A stretch of 64,000 bases of DNA, taken from IMG/VR virus record IMGVR_UViG_3300032245_000936, positions 48,658 through 112,657 of that record; one strand, written 5' to 3'. Position numbers and translations under genes: made by a program. The stretch comes from a virus. Below are positions 25,301-62,524 of this stretch, piece by piece (position 1 is the first letter of the stretch; each line of letters opens with the position of its first letter). The notes under the pieces were generated by a model. That model saw nothing but the letters and a program-made list of their open reading frames with translations. It was not told the DNA's origin and searched no databases.

Positions 25301-28300
25301 CCATACTGTCCAGCTGTTAAGCTAATAGAGTCGCCAACATACACATTTGCCACGTTGCCAAATGTCATTACATCACTGAGTAGTGTATTAGATATTAGTG
25401 TGTGCGTGGTCCCATCAACTATGGTAATATTTGGTTGCAATTGGTAGTTTAGACCAATTGCAGTTAGTTGTGCATTGATTAGCGTTCCGCTTGAAATTCT
25501 AACGTTGGTGACAGGAGCATAGCCCCCTGCTACATCTGGGGTACTAATGAACACTTTGGTCAGAGGACCGTATCCGCTACCTGGGTTTAGTACACGCAAA
25601 CCTGAGATTGTTCCTTGACTGTAGCCTGGAGTTCCAGCTACATATAATCTGTTGTCAACGCTTATTCTTGCTGATGCACCGTAGCGTTCACCAGAAGAAA
25701 AATCGCCATCGCGGATTGGCATCAATTGGTTGAAGTTCCACTGTGATGATTTTTCAAACACTGCCCAGACACCATTGCTTATGTCATTGTCTACCCAGAC
25801 TCTGTCATTTTCTCGCCAGCCGTGTATTGGGGTAAACTTGGTGATATCACTGACCTGATTATAACGAACACTATCCATGACAAAGAATATGCCTTTGCCT
25901 TCGATTGTCTGCTGTTTTCTTAATCTCTGTAGATTTCTGTAACCTGGTACAATAACTGTAAACTGATCGGTAACTGTGGTAACTCTGTAGAATCCATTGA
26001 AGTCAGGATCGAATGATTTAAGCACAAACAAGTTGTTTACTTCAAGCCCGTGCGGAAGATCAAATGATATTTGAATTGTGTCTGCAACACCAATTCTTAT
26101 TTCTGTGATTGTGATATCTGTTTCTGTAGCACGATATACATTCCAGTCTTTGTTAAAGTCTTTAGCTACCCAAAGTTTGTATCCTGCACCAATCTGTTCA
26201 ACTAACTGATAGTAAGATGCAAAGTCAGAAATGTCATATACTGTGTAGTCTACATCGTCCAAGCGTGGATAACCCGCTGTCAAGTTATCGCTGATACGAG
26301 GAGTTACATCGGTACGTGCTCGCACAATCTGTGGATTGTATGTGTCTTCAGTGAATCTATAAACTGTTTCCGGAGTAACATTTACTGCATTATTTACTGG
26401 TGTTTCTCCGCGAGCCAATAGTACCACTGCGGTAGGATCATTAACAAATGTGCTTTCATCCAGCACAATTTCAATTGCCTGGTCTGAACCCAATGCGCCG
26501 TAATCACCAACGCGGAATCCCCACTCTTCGTAAAGGCTAATGTTGCTACCTAGATTATTAAAGTTACCGCGAGTCAAGGTAGTCACTGAACTTAGCGTAC
26601 CTTTTTGTTTGATAAACCCGTGATAGAATTTTACTTGACTTGTTTGATCCAAATCAAAATCTTGGAAGTAGTTACGTGCGCGATACCCAACTAGTCCTTG
26701 ACTAAATTGATCAAGTGTTGAGTCTGCAGGGTGATTATCTAGGTCGTAGATGTTGTTAAACTTCTGTGCGTTTAATGCAAAGTTTGGTAGCAGTCCAGTT
26801 TTAATACGTGACTTTTCAATTGGGGTCCATTTAGAGAAATCAAACTCTGCGGCTGCATTGACTTCTACACTTGCATAGTAATAGTTGTCTTTGAAATTGA
26901 CTAGGCTACCACGTCGATACTGTGTGCCCACTTGCCATATATCAACTTTATCGTTGTTATAGATAAACCCAGCTGGGTTTAGTTGCCCGGTCCAACTTCC
27001 GGTTTTGTTGCCAATTAGTTTTAATCGATACTGACGACTGCCTAGTTCTGGCACATAGATTACATCATTGAACACTGTGGTGTTGTCAAACACAACCACG
27101 TGTTCGTACTGTACTAGGTTAAGGTCTACTAGACCAAACGTCTGACCAAATATACTTTCCAGGGTGAATGTATTGTCTTCACGAGTGACTGTGAATTGGT
27201 TGTTCTTGATAATTGTGAAGTTCTGGTCTAGAACTTTGCTGCCGTTGAGTACATTTTCAACATGGTCAACAACACCATTTTTGTTTGTTACTTTGATAGC
27301 GTTGAAGGCCGGGCTTAGTACCAACACATTGCCGGCTTTCCAGCCTTGTTGGCTCCAAACCAGGAACTCTCTAGCACTTAATACCCAATCTTGCTTGATA
27401 GTTAGATCAATATTGTATTCATCAAATACAAAACCTTGTCCAATCAAGAATCGACCGTAGCTTACCAAGAAGTCAACAATTTCTTGTCGTGTGGTAAATT
27501 CGTAACCATATGGTACTGTGATGCGAGTGCGTTGGAAGTCTCGATAAACTACCGCAGTTTCGTTTAGTTCACTGATCTTATAAGCATTATTATTTGATGA
27601 ACTTGGAATAATTGTAAAGTATGGCGTAATTGTATCGTAGCCAGTTACTGTGTATCTGCCAGCTGATTTTTCAATTATCACTGCGCTATAGATTAGTCTG
27701 TTTAGCGGAGTGCCCTTGTTCAAGAAAATTTTGTAGTTTTCTTGAGGAATTACCACGCTAGAAGAATTACTGCTTGGCGAACTTTGATCGGCCAGGATCG
27801 TTAGGAACTTGCTGTCTGCAAAACCTGCCATTTTGTATCCTAATTTTAATTTAAAATTAGTGATATAATTTCTAAGTGTTTGGCTAGCTGGTAGTCCTTT
27901 GCTAACCAAGTAGTCTCTAATCCAGTTCACATACCCAGCTGTGAATGTTGTTGTTTCGTTTATACCAATGCCATCGCTAGGAATATCAAAAGACGTCTGT
28001 GTTACACGCTGTTTTGTAGTGGTCAACAACAACTGATCAATATCTCTGTCGCGGTAGTAGTTGTTGGTGTTAAACATACTACCAAAGTAGAATGCAGGTT
28101 TTGCCAATGCTAGTGCAATTTGCACTGCATACGGAAACGCACTACTACGGCGCCATGCGGTTTCAACTGGCCCTTGATCTCCAATGGACCAACTGGCTCC
28201 TGTGCGGGTACCATCAAAATTACTGACCACTAGTTTCTCAGGACTGAGCAATAGGCCAATATCATCTACTGGAATATATTTGTTTAGGCCTGGGCGAGCA

Positions 28301-31300
28301 AAACGTGTATCAACTCCTGCACGAGTACCCCGGGCAATACGTCCAGCTTCTAAGTCGTCCCATAGCAGTTTGTTTGCACCAGTATACGGAGCTGGGCCGT
28401 ACACTTCTGTCCACCATGTTGGCTGTTCACTAAAACCTAGCATCTCCCATGGTGCAGTATTAGGACGGTCGGTGTCATAGTAATGTTGATATACTGCTCT
28501 CCAGAATCCTGGCAAGAATTCTCCGTCGGCATCTTTGAGATAATGATAGTTCCATGACCATGAATTATTGGCTGCAAAGGTATCATTGCGTGTGTAGTTT
28601 AATTGATTATTACCTACCCAATTTAAGAAATTGCGTGTTAACAATCTATTAAATTCTGCAAGAGTGTATTCAGTATTGCGGAACTTGCCGGGCAAGTAAT
28701 CATATATGTCTAAGATATTGGCTTGGTAGTCAACTTTGATGTTGTTGTAGATTCGAAGTTCTAGCTCCATCAACAAACGATCACGTATGTCATTGAACAC
28801 AGGAGTTAGCGATCCGTCGTGTCCTTGGATCACCATCACTGGTACTTGATATGTAGTATCCTCAAACATTGTTGGAACATAACGTGGATATAAACCTAGC
28901 TTGGTAGGTGTTTCAGGAACATAACTACCAATAGTGCTTGGTCTTTCAACCACTAGCAATGTTTGTGTATAGGTTAGTTGTACGTGGTCAGCTAGATCAA
29001 TGGCCGGCAAGGTTTGATTAAATTCAAAATCAATTCCTTTAATCAATTGTTGATTAAGTCCAATAGAGTCATCGCGAAGATATACCAATATGCTACGACG
29101 ACTTAACTCCATGTCTTTGTAGATGTTTGGAATTTCGTAACGACGACGCTGTGTATTGATTATTTTTATTGGAGTATTAACTACTGCGCCACCCCATGGC
29201 ACCATGTCACTGTCATACCATGGACTGGTTGAGTTCTTGCCTACCATGACAGAAGTCATTACAACTTCAAACGCATCAGCAATGTTTGATGGTAAATCTT
29301 GTTTCAAGCATTGATCTAGGAATCGTTGCTTGAACCTAGTATATTCTTTTTGTGCATATTCTGCGGCTTCAACAAATCCCAATCCCTTGCTTATATTACT
29401 GCTAGTAGCCGACGAGTTTGCTTCTAGACTGCTAGTAGCAGAATCACCAAGCATGATTGCGGCATAGGTTCCAGGACTTGCATGTTGTACAATCGAGCCT
29501 TGCCAATCTTTAATATACAAATCTCTAGAATTATTTTTTCCTGCAACTGTTCCAGATAATCCTAGATGATTCTCACTCATATGAGTAAAGTGGTTACGCA
29601 TCTGTCCTAGGGTTAGTACAGTGAAATTAGAATTTTGTGCATTCACGTCAATGTTTGACGGAATCTCGTAATACCCCATGTTGCTCTTTGCTTTTGCATA
29701 GATAAAAATATCCACGTTACTTGCTGGTTTAACTTTCAACAATGCCTGATCAACAACCACTGCATAACGGCCGCCGTATTTGCGTAGTGTATATTGATCA
29801 CTGGAAATTTTGCTGTGATCAACATATACCTTGATATAAGGTATAGCCGCACTTGGCAAGGGCAATATATCAATTTCAAAATAATTGGTACGTCCATCAA
29901 ACTCATGATGTATAATTTGATACTGTTTGGTTTTTTCTTCGAGCTTGGTCCAAATATTTCTAAAAGCAAATGTTCCGTTGACTCGTGTTTTTAGAAAATA
30001 ATTGTTTACATTGCGAGAAACTTCAACTGTATCCAAATTATAGCGGAATGTGTCAATATCAAAGTCATTGTTGAACTGTATATCTCCAACGTTTTGGAAA
30101 CTGCGATAGCTCAACGGGAACCCTAGGAATTTGTCATTAGCTCCTGTTCCTACTTTGTATGAGTATACTTTTGTGCCTGCAAACTTGCTACCTGGATAGT
30201 AGTTTGAATCTCCGACAGAATTTCCATCTTTGTCAAAAATATCAAACAAAGGTGACTGATTATAATTGTTTTTCTGCTGACCAGGAATCCACTCTTGTCC
30301 AGTGTAGTAGTACTGATTAAACAATGTGATCACGCCAGTTTTTAACTGTGCTGTTGCAGTTGAACCTGCAGTGGGTTCTGTCAGTAATATTGTATCACCT
30401 GCTTCGTAGGTGTCTGGAGTGGTATCACCATCGCTAGCAATAAAATTGGTTGCAGAAGTAATTTCTGCAATGGCTTTTGCGGCATAGGTAAATGTTGCTT
30501 CAATGGTAACAAAAGGTTCTTGAGCAATATCTAGAATCACTCGATACTGCTTTTCAGTTGCTGATAACTGTACTGTCTGTAAGTCAACTACCTTAGGAAC
30601 ATCTGCGCCAGTGGTTAATCCAATGCCATTGGCGTTGTAGTTACTGGTCACTGTTGCGCCAATTTCAATACCATCATGATCTGGAACGATCAATACTGTA
30701 CCACCAGCACAGTCAGTGAATTTGGTCACTGCTGGAATTTGTGGTGTTATAGTGATTCGAGGTGCAGATGTATATTCTGCGCCAGGGTCAGTGATGTCAA
30801 TTCCAACAATCTTAGATGGAGCAAGTTTTGTAGTAACTACTGCACTAGTAGAAAACTTCAACGGAATATTCTGTCCAAGAGTAATAACAGAATTAACATA
30901 CACAATACTACTGTATTGATCAACGCTGGTCACGCGAAGATTGTCTGGCAACGATCCTGCAAGGTCTGTCACTGACATACCGGCTTGAATCCCCATAACA
31001 GTGTTCAAACGCAGGCCAGTCTCTGTAGCATTTTTACCTAACAACACTTGATTTACAATGTAAGATGTTTTATCAGAGCCAATTGGCTGTGACGAAGCAA
31101 ATTGTTCTTGTGTGAAGAAACGATTCTGTGCAGAGAATACAACTTTGCTACCAGCTGGTAGATCAATTGGCTCGCCGTCAGCATCACGAGCATCAATGTC
31201 ACCAGTTAACACAACCTGATTATCAGCCACCGCCAGTACTTTTAGAATATTCGCATTGGACAGATCCACGTCCATATAGAACTGATATGTGTCTGGATTT

Positions 31301-34300
31301 GGTCCTGTTACCTCAGTTTCAACATACGGAGTTCTAGAGAAGTCAGCATAGTAGAAACCACCAGTGGCATTTGGTACTACCAAGAAAGCCAACCAACCTG
31401 GTTTTATATATTGTACGTCTGTGTAGGAGTCAAAGGTTAAAACTCTTGATCCGTAAGCAGAAGCTTCTCCGGTGGCAACTTCTACATTGTTAATCACTGT
31501 GGTGATAATGTCTGTGCCCAAGCGATATCCAGAACCCACAGATTGAATTGTAAAGTATTCAATTGTGTTATTGTTCAGAATTGCTGTTGCAGTTGCTTGT
31601 GCAGTGAGAATTTCTGGATTTGACGGTGGTGGTGGTATAGTCAAACTTGGGGCGCTGGTATAACCAGATCCAGGGTCATTGATAATCACTGTGTAAATTC
31701 CGCTACCATCGCCGTTGGCGCTGCCTTTTGCAGGAACGCCTAAGAAAACTAATTCTGTGCCTTGTTTCAAACTCACTGATTTGCTAAGTTGCAGAGTGGT
31801 GCTATCAATAATTCTTATTACTCTCGTGTCGTAGGGCACAGTATACCCCGAGGTGTATCCACCAGAAACATACTCAAAGTAACTACGACCGTCAACTGGA
31901 TCAGTGAGTCCAACATCGCTGTACAAGTTAATTGTTAATGTGTCAACTACATCAACATAATAACTGTTGTTGTTTAACTGTGTGGTTCCGTTTACACCAA
32001 TAATGGTCACTAGATCGCCATTGACAAACCCATGAGGATTGCCCGGACTTGTGGTAATAGTAATTGGTAATACCACCGCAGAAGTGGTATACAGGAAAAT
32101 GTTTTGAATTGGAACAGGAGTTGATCCGCCCACAAGTATCATGTTACGCATGGTATATTGTGTGGTGTCAACTTTGATCTGAGTTTGGTATCTCACTGTC
32201 TCTGACACAATTGAAACATTTCCAACGTTGCTCTTGAATGTCAATGGCACTGTGAGTGTGTTGGCATTAGGGCCTGGTTTAGCCTCATCAGCACCAAACA
32301 AACGCACAGGAATGCTGAGTGTGATATTTCCCGAGATTCCATTTACGGCAGAAACTTTTGTTCCACTAAGAATATTAGGTGCATATACAAACCAATTTTG
32401 TGCTAGCCCAGACGGCACTGCATCCAAAGTGATAGTATCTGAAGTCACAAGCCCGTTGGCAAATGCGCTAACAAAAGTATTTGCTTGAGCTGGATTTGGA
32501 GAGCTGAATATGACATCGATGTTTTGTGCTGAATACCCTGCGCCTTTGTCAGTGATACGAATATAATCAACATACTTGAATGCGTTGTAAACAGGAGTAA
32601 TCACTGCCGGAGTATCGTATGTTGTTGAAATTGTTACTGTTGGTTCAGCAATGTAGTTTAGTCCAGAGAAATTTACATCAATCAAATTAACGCTGGTTGG
32701 TGCAGCCAGGGCCACGCCTTGTGCAGTACGAGTACCAATACCAGGAAAAGGTGAAGTAAATGTCACAGTTGGAACGGTGGCATAGGTTGGTGCTGTGGCA
32801 TAATTTGTTCCGCCACTGATCAATTCAATTTGCCCAACATAGCCTGTGCCTGTTAGATGAGCCACTGCATTGGCTCCAATGCCTTTGCCTTTGTTTACAA
32901 AAACAATAGTAGGTGTTCCACGGTAACCTGCACCTGTATTACCAATGATAATATTAGTAACAGTTCCTGTAATAGGATCTATATTTGCTGTGGCAGTAGC
33001 AGGGTATATTGGATTACCTCCAATAACAGCAACCTGTGTGTCTTGGACCATGGTGGCGCCTGACACATAATAGCTTGGGGCTGTTTGTGTATTCTTGCTT
33101 ACCAAATGAATCTGGGTCTGCTGACTAGTGGAAATAAAATCAACTTGCCAAATTCTATTTCGTACATCTGGATCCAGATCATTGGCAAAAATAATACGTG
33201 TTCCACTGGTCAGCTGACGTGTGACGCCATTAGGAAGTCGCACTATAAATTCTGTTTTACCTTCAACTTGGCTAAAGGCATCTGTAACTGTGTAGTCAAT
33301 TATGTCAACTGGTGCTTTTGCACGACTACCATGGTTGAACAGCATAATGTCTGCTTCAAATTCAATAATAGGGCGGCGAGCGCGAGTGTCTGCAAACTGC
33401 TCAAGTATGGTTGTATCGTTATTATACTTTGCGGTCAATGTCAGCAAGTCAGTGTGGAACCAGCGGTTACTGCGCGACCATGCGTTTAAATCTGAACTTG
33501 CACGATTGATAGTAACATAATCAGGTGTGGTTACTAATGGATTAACGTATTCCTCAGGTATAATCAAATTACCAACAGGAACCAATGTAATTGATCTACC
33601 AACACCTTCAACAATGTATAATCCATTAGAGTAGATAGCTGGAACAACAGTTGAGTCAAATCTTATTTTTAGCCCATTAGTAAACTTAACGCCATTGGGA
33701 CTGGTATAAACAGGTTTGCCAATAATATCTGTTTCAACATCAAGTTGTGCAAAGTCTGGTTCTACTAAACGAATAATTCCAGAGTACTTGCCGTCTACAC
33801 CATCCTGGTAGTAAAGAGTATCTAATGTTGCAGTGATTGGACGAACCGGTTCCCACTTTTGTCTTGAATTCTTAAAGAATGTAACACCAGAGTTTGCTTT
33901 ACCGGCTTTTACAAATACTTTTTGTCCAACATTAACCTGACGAATAGGAACCAATTGAATTACAAAGCGGCCGCCACCAGTATCAAAAGTACTGATGCGG
34001 AAAATATCTTGTCTATTCTCTTGAGGAATGTATACTGGAGCATCTTCACTGTCAAACGGACGGAAATCAAACACACCAGGATCAGTCCAGTCTTCGTTGT
34101 TGTCGCTAGGATTTAAAAAAATCAAAGTACGGTCGCGCAAACTTTCTGTTACGCCATCAATACCACCAGCGCGGACCAGATTTGAATTCAAATGATTTTG
34201 CAGTTGTGCAAAAGTCAAGGTAGTGGCCAAGTCAACATCGGCAACTTTCTCAGCTGAGATGTATGCGTCTTGAGCATTGGTATTTGGTACACGGAATGTA

Positions 34301-35001
34301 ATAAGTCCAGCGTCTATACCGTTGTTGTCAATTCCCAGGATGTCGCGGCTTAATGCTTCTGATTCAGTTGAGCGTGTGCCTGTTGCACCTAACTGAGTTT
34401 GAATCCAAAATGGATGCCCGGCTTGGCTGATGCTAAAGGTATAGGTAGTTCCTTTAACCAAAGTAAGAATAGGATTACTGTCAGTACCAAAACCAGTGAA
34501 ATTATATCCATTGGCAACTCTGTTGTAGTTTACTTTGTAATCAAGTACTTGCACATCAGAGCTGGCTGACACAGCCACTTCAGGAGGGCCATCTGGTAAC
34601 CAGTAGTATTGATTGAAGTTAACAAATTTATCAAAATCAATCAATCCATTGAAGTTGTAACTTTCGCCTGCAAACAAACGGCTATGGTCATTGACCAAAC
34701 CACCGTAGTAAGCAATTTTTTGCAACAAGTCTGTGTAGCTGTTAAAGAATGCAACATTTTTATTTGCATCTTCAACTACCATACTGGCTTCAAGTTGATA
34801 ATTCTGACGTTCTGCGGTTGGCTCTGGTATATAACTGTCTCCAGACACAAACGTAGGCGCGACTTGTCTTCCGATATAACCATTGATTTTTCTAAAATCT
34901 GGTTCTGATATCAGCTGATCCATAGTAGCAGAAACAAACTTATTGTTTGTTTTGCTCCTAAAGATCTCAGGCAAAAAATTGATACTTTTACGTACAGCCA
35001 T
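16321..35001 (-). CDS. Giant (6226 aa) baseplate wedge/virion structural protein
   Basis: Uninterrupted 18.7-kb ORF directly downstream of the gp6-like gene; many GxGY..P repeats, FG-GAP-like and BNR-like propeller repeats. Confidence 0.8.
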   Translation of the reverse strand: MAVRKSINFLPEIFRSKTNNKFVSATMDQLISEPDFRKINGYIGRQVAPTFVSGDSYIPEPTAERQNYQLEASMVVEDANKNVAFFNSYTDLLQKIAYYGGLVNDHSRLFAGESYNFNGLIDFDKFVNFNQYYWLPDGPPEVAVSASSDVQVLDYKVNYNRVANGYNFTGFGTDSNPILTLVKGTTYTFSISQAGHPFWIQTQLGATGTRSTESEALSRDILGIDNNGIDAGLITFRVPNTNAQDAYISAEKVADVDLATTLTFAQLQNHLNSNLVRAGGIDGVTESLRDRTLIFLNPSDNNEDWTDPGVFDFRPFDSEDAPVYIPQENRQDIFRISTFDTGGGRFVIQLVPIRQVNVGQKVFVKAGKANSGVTFFKNSRQKWEPVRPITATLDTLYYQDGVDGKYSGIIRLVEPDFAQLDVETDIIGKPVYTSPNGVKFTNGLKIRFDSTVVPAIYSNGLYIVEGVGRSITLVPVGNLIIPEEYVNPLVTTPDYVTINRASSDLNAWSRSNRWFHTDLLTLTAKYNNDTTILEQFADTRARRPIIEFEADIMLFNHGSRAKAPVDIIDYTVTDAFSQVEGKTEFIVRLPNGVTRQLTSGTRIIFANDLDPDVRNRIWQVDFISTSQQTQIHLVSKNTQTAPSYYVSGATMVQDTQVAVIGGNPIYPATATANIDPITGTVTNIIIGNTGAGYRGTPTIVFVNKGKGIGANAVAHLTGTGYVGQIELISGGTNYATAPTYATVPTVTFTSPFPGIGTRTAQGVALAAPTSVNLIDVNFSGLNYIAEPTVTISTTYDTPAVITPVYNAFKYVDYIRITDKGAGYSAQNIDVIFSSPNPAQANTFVSAFANGLVTSDTITLDAVPSGLAQNWFVYAPNILSGTKVSAVNGISGNITLSIPVRLFGADEAKPGPNANTLTVPLTFKSNVGNVSIVSETVRYQTQIKVDTTQYTMRNMILVGGSTPVPIQNIFLYTTSAVVLPITITTSPGNPHGFVNGDLVTIIGVNGTTQLNNNSYYVDVVDTLTINLYSDVGLTDPVDGRSYFEYVSGGYTSGYTVPYDTRVIRIIDSTTLQLSKSVSLKQGTELVFLGVPAKGSANGDGSGIYTVIINDPGSGYTSAPSLTIPPPPSNPEILTAQATATAILNNNTIEYFTIQSVGSGYRLGTDIITTVINNVEVATGEASAYGSRVLTFDSYTDVQYIKPGWLAFLVVPNATGGFYYADFSRTPYVETEVTGPNPDTYQFYMDVDLSNANILKVLAVADNQVVLTGDIDARDADGEPIDLPAGSKVVFSAQNRFFTQEQFASSQPIGSDKTSYIVNQVLLGKNATETGLRLNTVMGIQAGMSVTDLAGSLPDNLRVTSVDQYSSIVYVNSVITLGQNIPLKFSTSAVVTTKLAPSKIVGIDITDPGAEYTSAPRITITPQIPAVTKFTDCAGGTVLIVPDHDGIEIGATVTSNYNANGIGLTTGADVPKVVDLQTVQLSATEKQYRVILDIAQEPFVTIEATFTYAAKAIAEITSATNFIASDGDTTPDTYEAGDTILLTEPTAGSTATAQLKTGVITLFNQYYYTGQEWIPGQQKNNYNQSPLFDIFDKDGNSVGDSNYYPGSKFAGTKVYSYKVGTGANDKFLGFPLSYRSFQNVGDIQFNNDFDIDTFRYNLDTVEVSRNVNNYFLKTRVNGTFAFRNIWTKLEEKTKQYQIIHHEFDGRTNYFEIDILPLPSAAIPYIKVYVDHSKISSDQYTLRKYGGRYAVVVDQALLKVKPASNVDIFIYAKAKSNMGYYEIPSNIDVNAQNSNFTVLTLGQMRNHFTHMSENHLGLSGTVAGKNNSRDLYIKDWQGSIVQHASPGTYAAIMLGDSATSSLEANSSATSSNISKGLGFVEAAEYAQKEYTRFKQRFLDQCLKQDLPSNIADAFEVVMTSVMVGKNSTSPWYDSDMVPWGGAVVNTPIKIINTQRRRYEIPNIYKDMELSRRSILVYLRDDSIGLNQQLIKGIDFEFNQTLPAIDLADHVQLTYTQTLLVVERPSTIGSYVPETPTKLGLYPRYVPTMFEDTTYQVPVMVIQGHDGSLTPVFNDIRDRLLMELELRIYNNIKVDYQANILDIYDYLPGKFRNTEYTLAEFNRLLTRNFLNWVGNNQLNYTRNDTFAANNSWSWNYHYLKDADGEFLPGFWRAVYQHYYDTDRPNTAPWEMLGFSEQPTWWTEVYGPAPYTGANKLLWDDLEAGRIARGTRAGVDTRFARPGLNKYIPVDDIGLLLSPEKLVVSNFDGTRTGASWSIGDQGPVETAWRRSSAFPYAVQIALALAKPAFYFGSMFNTNNYYRDRDIDQLLLTTTKQRVTQTSFDIPSDGIGINETTTFTAGYVNWIRDYLVSKGLPASQTLRNYITNFKLKLGYKMAGFADSKFLTILADQSSPSSNSSSVVIPQENYKIFLNKGTPLNRLIYSAVIIEKSAGRYTVTGYDTITPYFTIIPSSSNNNAYKISELNETAVVYRDFQRTRITVPYGYEFTTRQEIVDFLVSYGRFLIGQGFVFDEYNIDLTIKQDWVLSAREFLVWSQQGWKAGNVLVLSPAFNAIKVTNKNGVVDHVENVLNGSKVLDQNFTIIKNNQFTVTREDNTFTLESIFGQTFGLVDLNLVQYEHVVVFDNTTVFNDVIYVPELGSRQYRLKLIGNKTGSWTGQLNPAGFIYNNDKVDIWQVGTQYRRGSLVNFKDNYYYASVEVNAAAEFDFSKWTPIEKSRIKTGLLPNFALNAQKFNNIYDLDNHPADSTLDQFSQGLVGYRARNYFQDFDLDQTSQVKFYHGFIKQKGTLSSVTTLTRGNFNNLGSNISLYEEWGFRVGDYGALGSDQAIEIVLDESTFVNDPTAVVLLARGETPVNNAVNVTPETVYRFTEDTYNPQIVRARTDVTPRISDNLTAGYPRLDDVDYTVYDISDFASYYQLVEQIGAGYKLWVAKDFNKDWNVYRATETDITITEIRIGVADTIQISFDLPHGLEVNNLFVLKSFDPDFNGFYRVTTVTDQFTVIVPGYRNLQRLRKQQTIEGKGIFFVMDSVRYNQVSDITKFTPIHGWRENDRVWVDNDISNGVWAVFEKSSQWNFNQLMPIRDGDFSSGERYGASARISVDNRLYVAGTPGYSQGTISGLRVLNPGSGYGPLTKVFISTPDVAGGYAPVTNVRISSGTLINAQLTAIGLNYQLQPNITIVDGTTHTLISNTLLSDVMTFGNVANVYVGDSISLTAGQYGYSNIFVSDGITVQQIFSNNNKVRVSGTLSANTGIAVNFTRGTGGIINARLSPTNVTFIDVIDGGSGFTSVPSVEIIGGGGSGATAGAVTISSGTITAIAVATGGAGYTEPPIVNLITTNPTPVILRSRLSPVPIKDLIVSQPGQSYKEPKLLIQAYSGDTGVGATGTVGVTDNSIASVTIYPLLPGTGYAKAPVATVYDPDGTGSGAVLETIFTTGAVKAFTRPGAVGTLDLEAINTLRPFSVDAIEFGHAVDIGYTYTFASAPGSFTARGAVQVSEYFKTNWLNKQVLSPVDLEPNARFGESLACSRDEKWLYVGAPGANKVYVYARKSPGTGQLKINIDAERRVYSYVTNFVDVTNPAVLKVVGTSGRVFLAAFDYSISGGILTFIPPTGSVDPFDAIEGEVAVYVTRQAQPTTIIPLKDANDLYQTIYPLVQRPNGVETISVVGSSGRLYVPSREFTVIGSTIIFLTQEFINEASITVSPLDPYYVEAAVLEPDDRITWKTKDELKALYDDASVITLVQTIHDLEAQTRSINNTYTTYSEMVDANLANGTLAKVMNYVAELGTYSQYEIYIYLADQYIVIGTENLLVSRISKFGQAVACTNLGYQVVVGAPEVSIDTGIEQPSGGTVIAKAGKSYVFDRAYQVYTGTGSGQTLFTTSLALGVVNRVTLDDFEVREGIDYTASGFTVRFFEAPKSGQRIKIDINKFNLIQNIPSVDPVYQGFFGKSVAMAPDNQGIFIGAPGYRDVNYYNGRVYRFVNQGLFYGSTLTTQLYPVTTLGDTIRINDVDVLLSGSIDTATGNGSSLKVLNDISAQNIIGVTSSVEGISGIEFNNRGAGYFSTNVAITVAPPDLITGTQALVGNIQIFGGNGAIKSYDIIENGSGYTSLPKVTITGARTTQASAIAINDGSPLRIEVTSTQAIKRLDILPGVGTGLKDTGIKVYALTQVIEHPRLDQPEKFGYVIRCDGQTGETLVISSDGAATLASVTFDAKGTIFDRDTTRFIDSLKNSGAVYVYDYLPVPGETLQNPGKFLFNQVLQNSKIKFNDNFGSSVDINNGRIMVGAFNSSYYSTQAGLMHLFINPTSKKGWSKLRSRSELVDIDYINKVSAYNKKTQVALSTFDYYDPAKGKILGIADQDIDYKTSYDPAFYNKGTDTTVNIDATSYWNDVQIGRVWWNLDACRYITYEQGELTYRISQWGGLFPGSTIEILEWVESQYLPSDYVANGGDGVPKYPNDSAYVEVAYIDTQSGLVKTKYYYWVTDKVSVDTAKTKRINSISAISDIIQNPIKQELPYIAALSTNTFAVYNSKPFISGKDSILRIEYAQVLNNNIAHSEYELVQQGNPLSAIPTKLINKLIDSLAGENLTGDVVPDLKLREVDRLGISLRPRQSMLKDQAAGTRVLVQFVNKFFKQYLIAKEYDLTQLKLAEAIPQENLGFYDSRVTTKDALAYFTPADLFDGFRVLVETDADYSGFWTIYFYTAKDKTFTLERIQSYDSTRYWNYANWYINDTFNDNIQVNHIINSYNDIETLKEKVVDGDILKVTNFGGNFELYQLAVDSAGIITPTLVGAENGTIQLNSSLYDNTKSLVGFDNPGFDTTGFSKSLAIEARNIINGIFNYIFIGDNRVQLNKVFFALVNYILSEQQNADWLFKTSFITVVQKIRKLEQFASYIKDQQDYYQSYINEVKPYRTQLRDYLLDYEGLDESYNAIADFDFPAYYDPVRGTTRSLNPTKATDLAIVNAGVWKNWYQNYRYSIQRIVVTDSGSGYKQRPLVRISGGGGVSASARAVLDTDGKVVSVTITSPGQYFTSAPTITFVGGGGSGAKAYAELVSLTGNTTVDNSSKTVRTITTILNFDRITYSSSVRTWKPYTTYHVGDIVVVPDVKTSVFYNLPDQAVPSFSTPYRVLKTILGTVTLDLNIFQNDAVVQKLSGSDVDNAVDRLAAFHKPGTPDVAVLFNSPDTVRLTPASNNNDASSTGNQWARTAFSGVIPAANEYQYISVGQRGLLSYSQDGVNWTNVPLNDQAVNLRDVVYYNGTTWVAIGNRGYVLTSLDAVNWNIDQIITFRYSPSLDAVNGLVLNEAAQAVDLTGVTAFTSTQGSYILTVGNSDTILLNPTDTNASAPFENTWYAAKAQPKVYNTPANFLAVDSRSFGDLSLFIRAKTLRASATWAAVTGSTLIVRIPTADISGTIEFGMTMISPYVPTNHGVINVDSSTTPGTTVIQLGFTENTAIAAAGTVGTTRPAQMVHFAYYNANLEGSGSFTLNGFGKPMQVGFVVIGGINGNMYITSYNRLDDLQQGYKLSYNYDSGKGTDFNYPWIPMNVPKSVAGDSDGYSGEQINAIAISDDVGQWIIAIGSGGTLIWNKLDSPLQVQLGNADTGADTIGKVVMNYGINVFKNFREFDSDNFVLPLSAENVRKYDFTDISWDGEKFIVVGNKSTVIWGYPGYNDEVYIELGNINPNRYAYTRNSSAHWTGGTGLTSLIISIPVTDVIGAPIRGMTLNGAGLPTDSIITNVELIAGSWNITISFASANITTTVLGSFIAEYLFTAEIPVGTVLTFTDIDTATTKTLTVSRTAAKGDSVVYVNGYEKVTANWSISGTGIPLAATVNGIGRFAKFTWKFARGSGRDNNINYESIVVNKTTLQLNKPLSLPNKPSTDTSVAIPAGTSLTFFDATGTKIQKTTTQDVRNNTTTLIFETTDGLKIDYVLSPDTVFGIQSGTKIVSTAQYNIAGVLDHLYRDIPDKIPGASYPGGLVKGQEFLQTNTDPLSLDTIISSEYTDNLLGIRPEDIIVDGGKFIDKYSSHAPEELVPGQVIDSLQMNVFTANVTNGNIDYGNVTAFKIFTDYKLSTVYYRLPDANTTVLTANLSYEDTEISVADIARLPAPAAAINQPGSIWVNGEKINYFGIDLNRGVLTDIRRGAQRTSIPLVHVAGSIITDASPVQQFETDTVLTISNDYSVYNNIGNASIQNTAVYRVATTTHVPQGSIWLDLGQ

Positions 35002-46768: not shown

Positions 46769-46797
46769 TTGCTTATTGTATATTTATTTGTTACAAT
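46769..46797 (+). promoter_or_regulatory. sigma70-type promoter of gp55, with an antisense late promoter in its spacer
   Basis: TTGCTT-17 bp-TACAAT with extended TG; TATTTAT at 46781-46787 reads ATAAATA on the minus strand. Confidence 0.6.
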
Positions 46798-46822
46798 AAG
46801 TGGGTGTTTTAAAGGAAAAAGG

Positions 46823-47698
46823 ATGCGCCACAATTATTTAAATAACAAAGATATACTTAAAGAGATTCACAAGAGCAAAACTACCTACTGCTGGTTTGCT
46901 ACACCAGCCGACTCAGATTACGATATTATTTTATCTGTGGGCGAGAAAGGTAAGATTGCTAAAAAAGACGTTATGCAAGGGCGCCGCAATCGCGCTGAAC
47001 GTCTAGCTAAACTAGCACACGAAGCTGCCACAGCGGACGGTACCAAGCGTAAACTAGACGAATTTGAAGTCAAGCTCAAAGACGTTAAAGAAACAGATGT
47101 TGTGTTTCGTATCATGACCTGGACACATGTGCCAATTGATGAATCCAAAACCAAGAAACAATTGGCATTGGAAGAAGAAGCATCAGTTGATACGGAATAC
47201 GATGAAGGGGTTGAACCAGTAAAAGCGCCAACCAAATACATGAAGGTTAATTTTCCCCCATTCCAACATTGGAAACTCAATGAAGAAGGCGAATACTACA
47301 CCGTGGGTATCAGCCATTGGAAGGGTGATCCAGAATCCGGAAACTTCTCCAGAGACCATGGTAACATGACCAAGAAACTGGCGCTGATGTTCATGAAGCT
47401 GTGTGAACGCTATGCTACCCGTTCAAACTGGCGTGGTTATACCTACAATGACGAAATGCGCTCACAGGCATTACTACAACTAGCACAGATTGGATTGCAA
47501 TTTGACGAAAGCAAGAGTCAAAATCCATTTGCCTATTACACTGCCGCTATTACTAACAGTTTCACCCGTGTTCTTAATATTGAGAAACGTAATCAAAACT
47601 TACGAGACGATATTCTTGAAATGAACGGATTGAACCCAAGTTACACAAGACAGGGCATGAGTAGTGGCGCACCATCATCAGGTACTTACGAAGAATAG
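46823..47698 (+). CDS. gp55: Late-transcription sigma factor, T4 gp55-like
   Basis: NYLNNKD...NWRGYTYNDEM...FDESKSQNPFAYYT; AAGGA RBS before ATG at 46823. Confidence 0.9.
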   Translation: MRHNYLNNKDILKEIHKSKTTYCWFATPADSDYDIILSVGEKGKIAKKDVMQGRRNRAERLAKLAHEAATADGTKRKLDEFEVKLKDVKETDVVFRIMTWTHVPIDESKTKKQLALEEEASVDTEYDEGVEPVKAPTKYMKVNFPPFQHWKLNEEGEYYTVGISHWKGDPESGNFSRDHGNMTKKLALMFMKLCERYATRSNWRGYTYNDEMRSQALLQLAQIGLQFDESKSQNPFAYYTAAITNSFTRVLNIEKRNQNLRDDILEMNGLNPSYTRQGMSSGAPSSGTYEE

Positions 47699-50531: not shown

Positions 50532-50573
50532 TTTTTATCATGGCACACAAAGAGATAATTATGTTTGCAGATC

Positions 50574-51002
50574 ATGACATGGACTTATCAAGGAAACCCA
50601 GTTGAAGAATTGCCCGACGACTGTGTGGGGTTTGTCTACATGATTACAAACACAATCTCTGGAAGAAAATACATAGGCAAAAAACTAGCAAAATTTTCAA
50701 AAACAACTACCAAAACGGTAAAACTTAAAAACGGCACCAAAAAGAAAAAGAAAATCCGCTCCAAGATTGACAGTGATTGGCGCACATATTATGGCTCAAG
50801 CCCAGAACTAACCAAAGATGTTGTAGCACTAGGCTCAGAAAACTTTTCCAGAGAAATCCTCTTTATTTGCAAATCAAAGGCAGAATGTAGTTACATTGAA
50901 GCTCGAGAACAATTCACACATAGAGTACTAGAATCAGCAGATTACTATAACGGACACATACAAGTCCGTGTACATGGCTCCCACATAATCAACAAACTCT
51001 GA
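50574..51002 (+). CDS. Small GIY-YIG-like nuclease-fold protein with a poly-Lys insertion
   Basis: GFVY..TN..SGRKYIG, SDWRTYYGSS, F.REIL, EAREQF, YYN. Confidence 0.75.
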   Translation: MTWTYQGNPVEELPDDCVGFVYMITNTISGRKYIGKKLAKFSKTTTKTVKLKNGTKKKKKIRSKIDSDWRTYYGSSPELTKDVVALGSENFSREILFICKSKAECSYIEAREQFTHRVLESADYYNGHIQVRVHGSHIINKL

Positions 51003-51471
51003 CACCCAGTCAAGCAATCAAAACAGTAAAGGCTAGCACAGGCCAAGCTCGTGTGCTCTATACCTGGACCTCGGGTCACAGGGACGGAATCCTCTGCGCT
51101 GTACAGAGTACTCAATCACTATCCTTGACAGGACGAAGATCACTAATTGCCGTGGTTTGATTGTTTGAATAGGTGTTAAAGGCTAAAAAGACGCTCTAGC
51201 GATAGAGCACGATTAGTAGATATGTTAGCGTATGTTTACTATTCCGCCGTTGTTATAAAGACACAACTCGAGGTACCGGACAACCGCCTCTGTAATGTTG
51301 TAACGCTAATGTGGCTGTGCTACTCAGATGAAGTACATTCATTTTCTTTGCCCTGTGCGGGCAAAGTGTGACCGCTTAATCTAGATGATATACTTTCGCG
51401 CTTCGCGCATCGATTATAATTAAAAAAATATTGCTGAGCGGTAGCGAAGCAATAGATCTCGTTAGAGATCT
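51000..51471 (+). ncRNA. Candidate large structured non-coding RNA
   Basis: About 12 hairpins/stems in a gap with no plausible plus-strand ORF, including a long-range 13-bp stem (51010-51022/51156-51168), a GCGA tetraloop and G-U pairs on the plus strand. Confidence 0.6.
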
Positions 51472-59245: not shown

Positions 59246-60346
59246 ATGTTTGATGCTATCAAACCATTGTTAGATGCAGGCATCATCAACGAGGACACTC
59301 GTGTTGCTATCAATGAAGCATGGGAAACCAAGCTGAATGAGGCACGCGACGAAATCCGAGCTGAACTGCGTGAGGAATTTGCTCATCGTTATGAGCATGA
59401 TAAATCAGTAATGGTTGAAGCTCTTGACACTATGGTTACCGAAGCCTTGTCTGCCGAACTTAAAGAATTCGCAGATGAAAAACAAGCTCTAGCTGAAGAT
59501 CGTGTGAAATTCAAACGTCACATGACTGAAAGCGCCAACAAGTTTGATAATTTCATGGTTACTAAACTAGCCGAAGAAATCAAAGAACTACGTGCCGATC
59601 GCAAGCAGTATCAAAACTCTATCAAGGGTCTAGAAACATTTGTTATCAAAGCGTTGGCAGAAGAAATTCAAGAGTTTGAACAAGACAAGCAAGCAGTTGT
59701 TGAAGCACGAGTTAAACTTGTTGCTGAAGGCAAAGCTAAACTTGGTGAACTCAAAGCTCAATTTATTGAGAAGAGCGCACGTCTTGTTAAGGAAGCTGTC
59801 GCAACCAAACTTGAGACTGAATTGACACAGCTCAAGGAAGACATTCAAACTGCTCGCGAGAACATGTTTGGTCGTCGCTTGTTTGAAGCTTTTGCTGGTG
59901 AATTTGCTGTTACTCATTTAAATGAGAACAAAGAAATTGCCAAGCTACAAGCTACACTCAGTGCAAAAGAGCAACAACTACAAGAAGCCGTACAACAAGC
60001 AGAAGAAGTTTCTGTGCTTGTGGAAAGCAAAGAAAAAGAGATTCGTATTATCAAGGAATCACAAGATCGCAAGGCAAAACTGAACGATCTATTGAAACCT
60101 CTTAATACAGAGAAAGCCGCAGTAATGCGCGACTTGCTCGAGAGTGTGCAATCTGATAAACTTCAGACTGCATTTGAGAAGTATCTACCAGCCGTATTGA
60201 ACAACGGATCAGTGAAAGTAGCCTCACAAAAGACTATGATTTCTGAAAACCGTAGTGCAGTAACTGGTGATAAGACTGCTAATAAAGTCAGCGTTGAGTC
60301 CGGTGATAATGTAATCGAGATTAAACGTTTAGCAGGGCTAAAGTAA
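59246..60346 (+). CDS. gp22: Prohead core scaffolding protein
   Basis: Long Glu/Lys coiled coil between protease and capsid genes. Confidence 0.8.
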   Translation: MFDAIKPLLDAGIINEDTRVAINEAWETKLNEARDEIRAELREEFAHRYEHDKSVMVEALDTMVTEALSAELKEFADEKQALAEDRVKFKRHMTESANKFDNFMVTKLAEEIKELRADRKQYQNSIKGLETFVIKALAEEIQEFEQDKQAVVEARVKLVAEGKAKLGELKAQFIEKSARLVKEAVATKLETELTQLKEDIQTARENMFGRRLFEAFAGEFAVTHLNENKEIAKLQATLSAKEQQLQEAVQQAEEVSVLVESKEKEIRIIKESQDRKAKLNDLLKPLNTEKAAVMRDLLESVQSDKLQTAFEKYLPAVLNNGSVKVASQKTMISENRSAVTGDKTANKVSVESGDNVIEIKRLAGLK

Positions 60347-60372
60347 ACCCTAAACAGGAAAAGGAAAAAGAA

Positions 60373-61566
60373 ATGACAACCGCACTATTAGAGAGCCGTT
60401 GGGGCGAAACCAAAGATGCCCTGTTAGAAGGCTTAAATGGTTCTAAAAGAACTACAATGGGTGTAATCCTAGAGAACACCCGCAAGTACTTGGCAGAAAG
60501 TGCTTTAGCTAGCACAACTTCTGCAAGTAATGTTGCAACACTTAACCGCGTGATTCTTCCAGTGATTCGCCGTGTTATGCCTACAGTTATTGCAAACGAA
60601 ATCGTTGGTGTTCAGCCAATGACAGGTCCTGTGGCTCAAATCCACACCCTGCGTGTTCGTTATAGCGATAGCGTTGGCGATAGCTCAAGCTATGGTACAC
60701 CAACAACAGCTGGCGACGAAGCATTGTCTCCATTCAAAATTGCTGTTGCGTACTCTGGTGCTACAGTTGGTGGTTCTTCCACTACTGGTAAAGCTAACAG
60801 CACAAGCGCACTAGAAGCAGTTCCTGGCAACCGCATCAACGTTCAAATCTTGAAACAAGTTGTTGAAGCCAAGACACGTAAACTAAGCGCACGTTGGACA
60901 TTTGAAGCTGCTCAAGACGCACAAGCCATGCACGGTTTGGATGTTGAGGCAGAAATCATGGCCGCACTTGCACAAGAAATCACAGTTGAAATTGACCAAG
61001 AAGTGTTAGGTTCCCTACGCTCATTGGCAGCAACTGAGTACACATTTGACCAGGCAGCAGTGTCAGGTACAGCTACATTCGTTGGTGACGAGCATGCCGC
61101 TTTGGCAGTTCTAATCAACCGTACTGCTAACTTGATCGCTCAGCGTACACGTCGTGGCGCTGGTAACTGGGCTGTTGTTAGCTCTGCCGCACTAACAGTG
61201 TTGCAGTCTGCTACTACCAGCGCATTTGCTCGTACTACAGAAGGTACATTCGAAGCTCCTACAAACACCAAGTTTGTTGGTACTTTGAACGGTGCTATGC
61301 GTATCTATGTTGACAGCTATGCTAGCGATAGCCAAGCAGTTCTAGTTGGTTACAAAGGTTCTAGCGAGGCTGATGCAGCCGCGTTCTATTGCCCATACGT
61401 GCCATTGATGAGCTCTGGTGTTATCCTTGACCCAAGCACATTCGAACCAGTCGTAGGCTTTATGACTCGTTACGGATATGTTGAGTTGACAAACACAGCA
61501 TCGTCACTAGGTAACGCAGCCGACTACTTGGGTGAGATTGCTGTAAGCAACCTATCATTCCAGTAA
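60373..61566 (+). CDS. gp23: Major capsid protein
   Basis: GVQPMTGP, VEAKTRKLSARWTFEAAQD, EIDQE, YCPYVPL, GFMTRYG. Confidence 0.97.
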   Translation: MTTALLESRWGETKDALLEGLNGSKRTTMGVILENTRKYLAESALASTTSASNVATLNRVILPVIRRVMPTVIANEIVGVQPMTGPVAQIHTLRVRYSDSVGDSSSYGTPTTAGDEALSPFKIAVAYSGATVGGSSTTGKANSTSALEAVPGNRINVQILKQVVEAKTRKLSARWTFEAAQDAQAMHGLDVEAEIMAALAQEITVEIDQEVLGSLRSLAATEYTFDQAAVSGTATFVGDEHAALAVLINRTANLIAQRTRRGAGNWAVVSSAALTVLQSATTSAFARTTEGTFEAPTNTKFVGTLNGAMRIYVDSYASDSQAVLVGYKGSSEADAAAFYCPYVPLMSSGVILDPSTFEPVVGFMTRYGYVELTNTASSLGNAADYLGEIAVSNLSFQ

Positions 61567-61600
61567 TCAAAAGTTACTTTCTCAGGGATGGGAAGACATT

Positions 61601-61623
61601 AAAGGGCCGCAAGGCCCTTTTTT
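61601..61623 (+). terminator. Intrinsic terminator after the capsid gene
   Basis: AAAGGGCC-GCAA-GGCCCTTT followed by a T run. Confidence 0.85.
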
Positions 61624-61631
61624 GTTGACGT

Positions 61632-61712
61632 AAAAAAAAATACCCGACACATTTCTGTGCCGGGTACATAACTAAACAGGATGTTTTGACACCGTCTGAT
61701 TTGCGTCATAAC
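61632..61712 (-). ncRNA. Candidate ~80-nt small RNA with its own promoter and terminator
   Basis: Minus-strand TTGATT-17 bp-TATAAT (61747-61719), then terminator TACCCGGCACA-GAAA-TGTGTCGGGTA-T9 (61666-61632). Confidence 0.6.
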
Positions 61713-61767
61713 ACAAGTATTATATGACATAAACAGGAAACAATCAAGTTTTCTGATAAATATTTCT

Positions 61768-61822
61768 GTTCGCTCATGAAAGAGAGTTTATGCGGCCCCA
61801 ACCGCGTAGGCCTAGAACGCCA
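61768..61822 (+). promoter_or_regulatory. Structured 5' leader downstream of a late promoter
   Basis: ATAAATA at 61756-61762, then a GTTC...GAAC closing stem enclosing CTC/GAG and TATGCGG/CCGCGTA hairpins, just before the GGAG RBS. Confidence 0.45.
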
Positions 61823-61840
61823 TAACACAAGGAGAAACAA

Positions 61841-62524
61841 ATGGGACGTCCAATTAAAAACAAATATATTAACCCTGAGGGCTCACGTCCAGGTACAGGT
61901 GGTGAAGGTGTAACAGTTACATCTGCTAACGCAAGCCCAACATTTAGCAATCGTGGTCTAGGTTACTACACCGCCAACGTGTCAGCTACTGTTAGCGCAC
62001 CACAATTAACAAACGGTACTACAGCAACAATCAGCACAGTTCACCTGTTTGCCAACGGTGCTGTTAAAGCATTGCAAATTAGCAATGCTGGTTCTGGTTA
62101 TACCACAGCTCCAACAGTTACATTCTTTGGCGCTAACTCAACACCAGCAGCCGCAACAGTGGCAATTGATGTTGCTACAACTACAGGTAACTCAATTTTA
62201 GCCAACTGCTTTTTTACAGGTAGCGGTTCCGGTACACTCACTGCTGACATTTTGAAAGCACGTGGCGCACGTACATTTGTATGTAAAAACGGTGGTACAG
62301 CAGAAACATTGAAACTGATTACTAGCCCAAATAGCAATCCGTACATTGGTGGTACAATGACTATCACTGCTACATTTGCTGATGCTAGTACATTTAACGT
62401 TGCTAAGATTACCAATCGTAAAGTTTACAGTTCAACTGGCAAAGCATACAAGTGGACATTAACCACTGGTAGTGCAGCCAATGTAAGCGCAAGCGATATC
62501 ACAGTTGTTGTTTCTAGTCTATAA
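61841..62524 (+). CDS. Virion structural protein (capsid-decoration/neck-like)
   Basis: Thr/Ala/Gly-rich with NAGSGYTTAPTVT repeats; strong RBS; late promoter. Confidence 0.7.
   Translation: MGRPIKNKYINPEGSRPGTGGEGVTVTSANASPTFSNRGLGYYTANVSATVSAPQLTNGTTATISTVHLFANGAVKALQISNAGSGYTTAPTVTFFGANSTPAAATVAIDVATTTGNSILANCFFTGSGSGTLTADILKARGARTFVCKNGGTAETLKLITSPNSNPYIGGTMTITATFADASTFNVAKITNRKVYSSTGKAYKWTLTTGSAANVSASDITVVVSSL

Follow-up and report, generated by a model that had tools for sequence, protein, structure and literature searches.

Behind the major capsid gene of an uncultivated phage, on the strand opposite to the capsid operon, lies a short stretch of DNA (61632-61747, minus strand) that an earlier note had read as a stand-alone gene for a small RNA whose 10-nt seed is complementary to the leader of the capsid mRNA. 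Is this a genuine non-coding RNA gene, and if so, is the capsid message what the RNA acts upon? The DNA in which we addressed these questions, the window, is a stretch of 64,000 nucleotides that forms the final part of a 112,657-bp viral metagenome record, estimated to be ∼32% complete.

The capsid gene of the window (60373-61566, plus strand) encodes a protein of 397 residues that matches the major head protein family phrog_138 in PHROGs with an E value of 6e-101 and is 66-68% identical in amino acid sequence to the capsid proteins of Vibrio phage 2.275.O and Pseudomonas phage PA5oct. By this identity the source phage groups with the PA5oct-like jumbo phages, whose core genes are of T4 type, and the name gp23, under which the gene had been described before, is fair as a statement of homology, given the head protein match and tblastn matches that include many Escherichia and cyanophage records. 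Most of the sequencing runs that contain related sequence are metagenomes from freshwater or lakes, in each of which it makes up a small share. Along the plus strand portal comes first, followed by an unnamed gene, protease, a functionally unassigned gene of 366 aa and then capsid; the structural region also holds a single open reading frame of 6226 codons on the minus strand (16321-35001).

A gp55-like late sigma factor gene is present at 46769-47698 on the plus strand; a Pfam search for such a factor gave no match, and it was the PHROGs search that returned one (phrog_12791, E value of 4.7e-77). ATAAATA boxes are depleted genome-wide, with 15 observed against ∼35 expected, and those that occur stand mostly upstream of structural genes, and sigma70-like promoters immediately precede the gp55-like gene and many of the non-structural genes. 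Based on this distribution of the ATAAATA boxes, the sigma70-like promoters and the presence of the gp55-like gene, the phage very probably relies on the sigma70 polymerase of its host at first and turns to a T4-like late promoter as infection proceeds. The sequence preceding the gp55-like gene reads TTGCTT-17-TACAAT (46769-46797), with a −35 hexamer identical to the consensus of the family described below, and its spacer contains ATAAATA on the other strand, directed into the divergent structural operon.

Within the gap behind the capsid gene, the minus strand carries all of the elements of a compact transcription unit, which are collected in Table 1 together with their neighbors. The promoter TTGATT-17-TATAAT, at 61747-61719, was found just as it had been proposed, and with 10/12 positions it is the best sigma70-like match within 56-64 kb. 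The 5′ end of the RNA was inferred as the seventh nucleotide past the −10 hexamer and the 3′ end as lying within the U-run, so both ends are predictions. In the predicted fold of the resulting 81-nt RNA (−28.3 kcal/mol, z = −4.9), a linker that contains the seed is left unpaired between a 5′ hairpin and the terminator hairpin; the GAAA-capped terminator with its U9 and the minus-strand body of ∼80 nt that had been read from the letters were recovered in the same places. A three-part fold of this predicted kind is typical of trans-acting base-pairing sRNAs, and the U-rich stretch before the terminator hairpin, together with the poly-U tail, fits the layout of Hfq-dependent sRNAs by analogy.

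Table 1. Predicted elements of the minus-strand unit, its candidate target and the adjoining features, in window coordinates
Feature	Position	Strand	Basis
−35 hexamer TTGATT	61742..61747	−	Promoter scan
−10 hexamer TATAAT, 17 nt past −35	61719..61724	−	Promoter scan and homologues
Third TAAACAGGA copy, in promoter spacer	61730..61738	+	Window-specific
Predicted sRNA, ∼77-81 nt	61632..61712	−	Fold and covariance model
5′ hairpin, loop with invariant UCAGAC (61699-61694)	61683..61712	−	Fold and homologues
Single-stranded seed AUCCUGUUUAG(U); core 61681-61672 complementary to capsid leader	61671..61682	−	20 homologues
Rho-independent terminator: 12-bp stem 61667-61640, GAAA loop, U8-9 tail	61632..61667	−	Terminator scan
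Candidate target CUAAACAGGA, 4 nt past upstream stop codon, over distal SD-like AGGA	60350..60359	+	Leader comparison
Capsid operon terminator, 8-bp stem and T-run, back to back with sRNA terminator	61601..61626	+	Terminator scan
ATAAATA late-promoter-like box of next gene, 8 nt from sRNA −35, divergent	61756..61762	+	Kept in relatives
Structured 5′ leader of next gene, freshwater-2-like	61769..61843	+	RF02980, 48.0 bits vs gathering cutoff 49.9

The unit lies wholly inside the 274-nt gap between the capsid stop at 61566 and the next start at 61841, and hence the RNA is not a cis-antisense transcript. It also appears to be non-coding: the two frames of 43 and 36 codons in the window run through the terminator, homologues with the short type of 5′ hairpin have no AUG, and a small-protein reading of these frames was rejected on the grounds that they cross the terminator and lack conservation. 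In an Rfam search of the sRNA no family reached its gathering cutoff; the best of the subthreshold scores (SdsR/RyeB, VrrA, NsiR1 and others) were 25.2 against 38, 24.4 against 50 and 22.9 against 39 bits, and look like terminator-driven noise. When assembled contigs from four freshwater metatranscriptomes were placed on 60300-62100, the capsid gene was covered by way of relatives, with next to nothing over the sRNA region, and one contig of low depth (5.3) skips 61666-61745; these contigs are uninformative on sRNA expression and were not used as evidence.

We examined relatives of the locus for copies of the unit. Among the best 80 capsid relatives (78-92% amino acid identity) it was found neither by BLAST nor with a covariance model; these genomes share the capsid terminator, a gap of variable length that often holds inserted genes, the ATAAATA box and the structured leader. 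A search with the poorly conserved next gene (61841-62524) returned six closer relatives, five of them distinct, and all of these carry the unit in the same place. From the letters common to the protein-found copies a search pattern was made, the first version of which demanded seed, loop and −10 hexamer alike, and the scan with this pattern gave 13 viral and ∼16 true metagenome loci, bringing the total to ∼20 distinct copies. The five distinct copies found through the protein were never filtered on the letters of seed, loop or −10 hexamer, and repeat viral scans, one dropping the seed and one the loop requirement, returned the same 12 loci with no variant seed or loop among them. The unit was not found in 50 further relatives of a neighboring gene, in PA5oct, Vibrio phage 2.275.O or the cultured-phage collection, or by the pattern scan of 185,579 prokaryote species genomes. 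Its carriers form one clade of PA5oct-like uncultivated freshwater jumbo phages, with one copy in the record of the window and one in a complete 355-kb relative. The predicted sRNA is 61-79 nt long in these relatives, and in the window our covariance model, R1, matches 61634-61708 at 73.3 bits.

Comparison of the copies separates what is kept in the promoter from what is free. In the 18 distinct promoters TATAAT and the exact 17-nt spacing are invariant, and the −35 hexamer is TTGCTT in 15, otherwise TTGATT, TTGCGT or TTGTAA, and always starts with TTG; TATAAT is also present in the five distinct relatives that were found through the protein search alone. The spacer of these promoters contains no invariant column and has a mean pairwise identity of 45%. 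Two further features that had been singled out around the promoter, a copy of TAAACAGGA in the spacer and the sequences GTCATA/TATGAC on either side of the −10 hexamer, do exist in the window; both are absent from every other distinct homologous promoter, as is CCTGTTT, which occurs in the spacer of the window only. On this comparison the spacer copy and the palindrome are probably due to chance and without function. We also considered whether two copies of TCCTGTTTA could be a target-site duplication flanking a tiny mobile element, and rejected this because the spacer copy is confined to the window.

A plain MAFFT alignment of the copies gave no useful structure in RNAalifold, because the two types of hairpin and the differing stem lengths misalign. 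In the alignment fitted to the covariance model that was used instead, and which leans toward the structure, 95.4% of the cells pair, compared with 78% in shuffles and 28-46% with slid partners. Nine of the 19 base pairs have changed on both sides, with 47 compensatory cells against 12.5 expected, a number that none of 500 shuffles reached. The 5′ hairpin comes with two types of stem, long (AUGACGC/GUGUCAU) and short (GRUGCW/WGCAUC), in which U-A is exchanged for A-U and A-U pairs have become G.U, and its UCAGAC loop is invariant across the copies, including those from scans that did not demand these letters. In the terminator stem both sides have changed in 8/13 pairs, and 97.5% of the cells are paired. 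The G.U pairs (36 cells) also indicate which strand is the functional one, with 95.4% pairing on the minus strand compared with 85.4% on the plus strand. With the promoter hexamers and their spacing, both hairpins, the seed and the U-tail kept in ∼20 homologues, the stand-alone minus-strand sRNA gene that the earlier note had proposed has strong comparative support, and 61632-61747 very likely represents a real and new family of phage sRNAs.

We next turn to what the RNA might bind. The core of the seed, UCCUGUUUAG (61681-61672), is the exact complement of CTAAACAGGA at 60350-60359, so that the 10-nt match to the capsid leader that had been noticed in the window is correct to the letter. This target occupies positions −23 to −14 relative to the capsid ATG at 60373, within a leader of 26 nt that separates this ATG from the stop codon of the upstream gene. 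In the RNA the seed has a mean unpaired probability of 0.68, and AUCCUGUUUAG is invariant in 20/20 aligned homologues, which leaves 11-12 nt fixed while flanks, stems and spacer vary; judged from this alignment, the seed is under selection. When sRNA and leader were folded together, the minimum-energy structure used exactly the seed-target duplex and kept both hairpins, with a ΔΔG of −12.9 kcal/mol; the core duplex has −12.7 kcal/mol. The duplex has 10 bp, six of them A-U.

On the side of the target, CCCTAAACAGGA followed by G or A is present in the capsid leader of all 17 distinct sRNA-bearing genomes with leader sequence, and in 1/76 distinct genomes without the sRNA. That single exception is L004; the other genomes lacking the sRNA read TAATTAGGAG, TAAATAGGAG, TAAAAGGAAA or unrelated sequence in the leader. 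In a nucleotide tree of the capsid gene all carriers of the sRNA fall into a single group (SH-aLRT 92), and with this single origin of the clade the association between sRNA and leader provides one independent contrast, resting on one evolutionary event, and a test of it is powerless. Likewise, with neither seed nor target varying and one origin for the whole clade, what we see is co-conservation and not covariation. Most of the target is ancestral sequence kept for reasons other than the sRNA: CCCTAA and AGGAG are also found in relatives that lack it, and the only letters specific to the clade are AC, which are shared by the sRNA-lacking L004. Within the clade these AC letters have stayed fixed over ∼1.15 substitutions per site, a figure that is our own sum of the branch lengths of the capsid tree in the sRNA clade, and they vary among close sister genomes. 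A separate element, GCAGGGCT...AACCCTAA at 60330-60352 on the plus strand, surrounds the stop codon of the gene preceding the capsid gene and is conserved well beyond the sRNA clade; its AGGG and CCCU might pair into a small hairpin whose loop would contain the stop codon.

How exclusive is the match? The 112.7-kb record contains four copies of the motif TAAACAGGA, all of them on the plus strand: three are found around the capsid gene, and one is located inside the giant minus-strand open reading frame. The expectation is ∼0.6 per 64 kb, and four copies were reached in 0/100 shuffles. In this record the capsid initiation region alone has at least 8 nt of seed complement, and in the complete relative of 354,959 bp, which has five copies of TAAACAGGA, the motif is intergenic only at the capsid leader and in the sRNA gene. 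With composition-matched shuffled seeds, 2.7% match 10 nt in any initiation region of 112 kb. A genome-wide ranking by duplex energy, in which longer imperfect duplexes outscore the capsid site, is dominated by such long imperfect duplexes and was judged not useful. Taken on these sequence counts, specificity for the capsid site is reasonable. A second contact with the capsid region through the UCAGAC loop was considered and rejected, since no conserved occurrence of its complement, GTCTGA, was found around the capsid gene; without a partner there, the loop leaves part of the function of the RNA unexplained.

A mechanism can be outlined from these elements. The unit would be a self-contained non-coding RNA gene (∼65-80 nt), probably transcribed by host RNA polymerase with sigma70, and given that its promoter is of the type found before non-structural genes and the gp55-like gene, expression of the sRNA is probably early or middle. 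The unpaired AUCCUGUUUAG(U) would then pair with CUAAACAGGA, forming a perfect 10-bp duplex that would cover the distal SD-like AGGA(G), with the proximal AAGGA just downstream. Such a duplex would be expected to lower 30S loading and might destabilize the capsid message, setting a threshold that would block capsid synthesis from leaky or early transcripts; later, transcription from the ATAAATA promoters would flood the cell with polycistronic capsid mRNA and the threshold would be overcome. More speculatively, late polymerase on the ATAAATA box might also silence the sRNA promoter, whose −35 hexamer is only 8 nt away. That the sRNA gates capsid translation in this manner, as a threshold against early capsid synthesis, is a tentative reading to which we give slightly less than an even chance. 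The fuller proposal is that a virulent-type jumbo phage would possess a trans-acting RNA dedicated to its own major capsid protein: an early sigma70 sRNA, back to back with a late promoter, would mask the distal SD of the leader within a polycistronic late mRNA by its invariant seed and gate capsid translation apart from the co-transcribed portal, protease and scaffold genes. This is somewhat more doubtful.

The geometry of the site itself tempers this outline. The target begins 4 nt past the stop codon of the upstream gene, so that terminating ribosomes would, by our reasoning, tend to strip the duplex, and the proximal SD is left free, so that activation or no effect at all would also be possible outcomes. 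The short and A-U-rich nature of the duplex likewise weighs against simple repression, as does the invariant loop, for which the surroundings of the capsid gene offer no partner.

Other readings of the same locus have to be set against capsid gating. The sRNA could be a real trans-acting regulator with its main targets among host or other phage mRNAs, the capsid match being incidental or the abundant late capsid leader serving as a sponge that would turn the sRNA off toward the end of infection. The evidence for the sRNA gene itself is equally good for this reading; the seed contains UCCU, an anti-SD-like tetramer able to reach many ribosome-binding sites, and the UCAGAC loop that has no partner near the capsid gene suggests other partners. 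The capsid site is, moreover, mostly ancestral sequence, and a 10-nt match is not rare, the frequency found for 112 kb extrapolating to ∼8% per full genome. Against it, the capsid leader is the sole leader-located match of 9-10 nt in the complete relative genome, the AC letters that are free in the sister clades are invariant in 17 genomes over the evolutionary distance given above, and the target lies 1.3 kb from the sRNA gene in every genome. On balance we regard other main targets as rather unlikely. In another reading, TAAACAGGA might be a site for a phage protein on plus-strand DNA or RNA, at the capsid leader and downstream of the gene, with promoter and terminator unrelated to it. All intergenic copies do share one strand, and at both places the motif adjoins hairpins. 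The earlier note had entertained this alternative as a site present three times, but the third copy is unique to the window. Furthermore, the second site coincides precisely with the unpaired linker of an RNA on the minus strand that has a conserved promoter, U-tail and G.U pairs, and the letters on either side of the motif are not the same at the two places (CCC...G compared with AA...T), so that they have only 10 pairable nucleotides in common, and we consider a protein site very improbable.

The unit might instead act in cis, either as a promoter with a leader and attenuator for co-oriented accessory genes, gained and lost between the unit and the capsid gene, or as an antisense RNA or insulator that would stop read-through from the capsid operon into the next gene or destroy it by pairing. 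At least five relatives do have a gene on the sRNA strand ∼20 nt or less past the sRNA terminator, one of which is, by its motifs, putatively methyltransferase-like, and any transcript reading through would be complementary to the RNA over its full length. The site between capsid terminator and late promoter is, in addition, an insertion hot spot in relatives, with a homing endonuclease in PA5oct. Yet ∼15/20 copies have no such downstream gene, and the genomes with inserts are nested among near-identical ones that are free of them, as illustrated by L105 and L106, which are ∼0.01 apart in the capsid gene. This scatter of inserts among near-identical genomes, at what is a general hot spot, points to the sRNA module as the stable element. 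A pure antisense or insulator role, for its part, needs no invariant single-stranded stretch of 11 nt and no invariant loop amid variable stems, and action in cis is therefore improbable in our estimation. Finally, the unit could be a chance look-alike or a decaying remnant without function. A promoter-like and a terminator-like site can co-occur by chance in a single window, and the 8-kb region around the unit has 18 promoter-like sites where shuffles lead one to expect 14.3; but ∼20 diverged copies keep the hexamers, their spacing, two compensated hairpins, the seed, the loop and the U-tail, and the divergence of the capsid genes excludes that the copies are assembly duplicates of one sequence. 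We find this last reading barely credible.

The proposed gating of capsid translation can be compared with several known systems. Lambda OOP, P22 sar and P1/P7 c4 are short phage RNAs that block the translation or stability of phage mRNAs near the ribosome-binding site, and c4 acts in trans on a nearby target. These classical phage antisense regulators serve lysis-lysogeny or immunity decisions in temperate phages, and we know of none that targets a major capsid gene; the sRNA described here has no sequence similarity to them. In T4, mobile promoter/stem-loop cassettes of the PeSL type occur in several copies per genome, with a stem-loop upstream of an early promoter. The present unit is not such a cassette, since it has one copy per genome and the order promoter, RNA, stem-loop. 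Nearer in architecture are the trans-acting sRNAs of Gram-negative bacteria and their prophages that have an Hfq-type module, such as DicF and lambda PreS, with which the sRNA shares its own sigma70 promoter, a length of 60-80 nt, a 5′ hairpin, a conserved unpaired seed by a U-rich stretch, a terminator with a long U-tail and complementarity to an initiation region. In contrast to these it has no sequence or Rfam relationship with them, its carrier is a virulent-type jumbo phage with a T4-like late program and not a prophage, and the message that it is proposed to target, the major capsid mRNA, belongs to the phage itself and not to the host. Further examples of base-pairing sRNAs from phages are covered in a review (PMC12197685) and a recent report (bioRxiv 10.1101/2024.10.31.621285), the former including the phage antisense regulator lambda aQ (PMC12197685).

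In terms of the biological role that is proposed, the closest parallels are in the virulent Pseudomonas phages LIT1, LUZ7 and PAK_P3/PAK_P4, in which early or middle antisense transcripts have been proposed to silence premature late-gene expression (PMC9163698; PMC12197685). By proposal, both there and here a pre-late RNA restrains structural proteins and is later outnumbered by late mRNA. The RNAs of those phages, however, are long, cis-antisense and overlap the genes that they silence, whereas the sRNA here is short, is encoded 1.3 kb from its target without coding overlap and is proposed to act through a 10-nt seed. The phage sRNAs reviewed so far act in lysogeny control, host takeover or virulence, and capsid targets go unmentioned (PMC12197685), and a 2026 review of jumbo phages notes only that phiKZ expresses non-coding RNAs (PMC13282480). 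Few trans-acting sRNAs of virulent phages are known, and we came across no description of one that regulates a major capsid gene. If the proposal is true, this would be the first such sRNA family to come from comparative genomics of uncultivated phages, and post-transcriptional gating would, beyond promoter classes, shape the timing or stoichiometry of late-gene products in T4-like jumbo phages. The RNA of ∼70 nt and the 26-nt leader, with their predicted 10-bp contact, make a compact pair that is testable even though the phage is uncultivated.

As an RNA family for freshwater viral genomes the sRNA takes its place beside the orphan freshwater-2 motif, which we encountered at the same locus. 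The freshwater-2-like leader follows directly on the conserved ATAAATA box (61755-61843), and in seven relatives freshwater-2 (RF02980) scores 51.6-62.3 bits, so that the orphan motif thereby gains a genomic home in PA5oct-like freshwater jumbo phages. The leader is 80-86% conserved in nucleotide sequence, and its protein is ∼40% conserved in amino acids in most relatives. The two RNAs have habitat and phage clade in common, the freshwater-2 element lying 20 nt beyond the sRNA promoter on the opposite strand; they are nevertheless separate, as freshwater-2 is a plus-strand leader and is also present in many relatives without the sRNA.

The remainder of the gap is also of some interest. The capsid operon terminator is conserved in relatives with and without the sRNA. 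Comparison of L002-L081 and L165 marks the interval 61567-61755 as the insertion hot spot, with 0.1-2.6 kb of extra DNA and open reading frames on either strand; the endonuclease that PA5oct has in its post-capsid gap is Hef-like. In L006, which has no sRNA, a different minus-strand promoter-like site, TTGACT-17-TAATAT, occupies the corresponding place (within 4179-4410). It points at the capsid terminator, which in this genome looks as if it could work in both directions, and on our reading of the sequence might produce a short RNA unrelated to the sRNA. Elsewhere in the window, just past the open reading frame at 50565-51002, the plus strand holds a strong match to Polynucleobacter-1 RNA (RF01718) at 51031-51166, which at 115 bits against a cutoff of 37 (E value of 3e-24) is the sole Rfam match at gathering level in the window.
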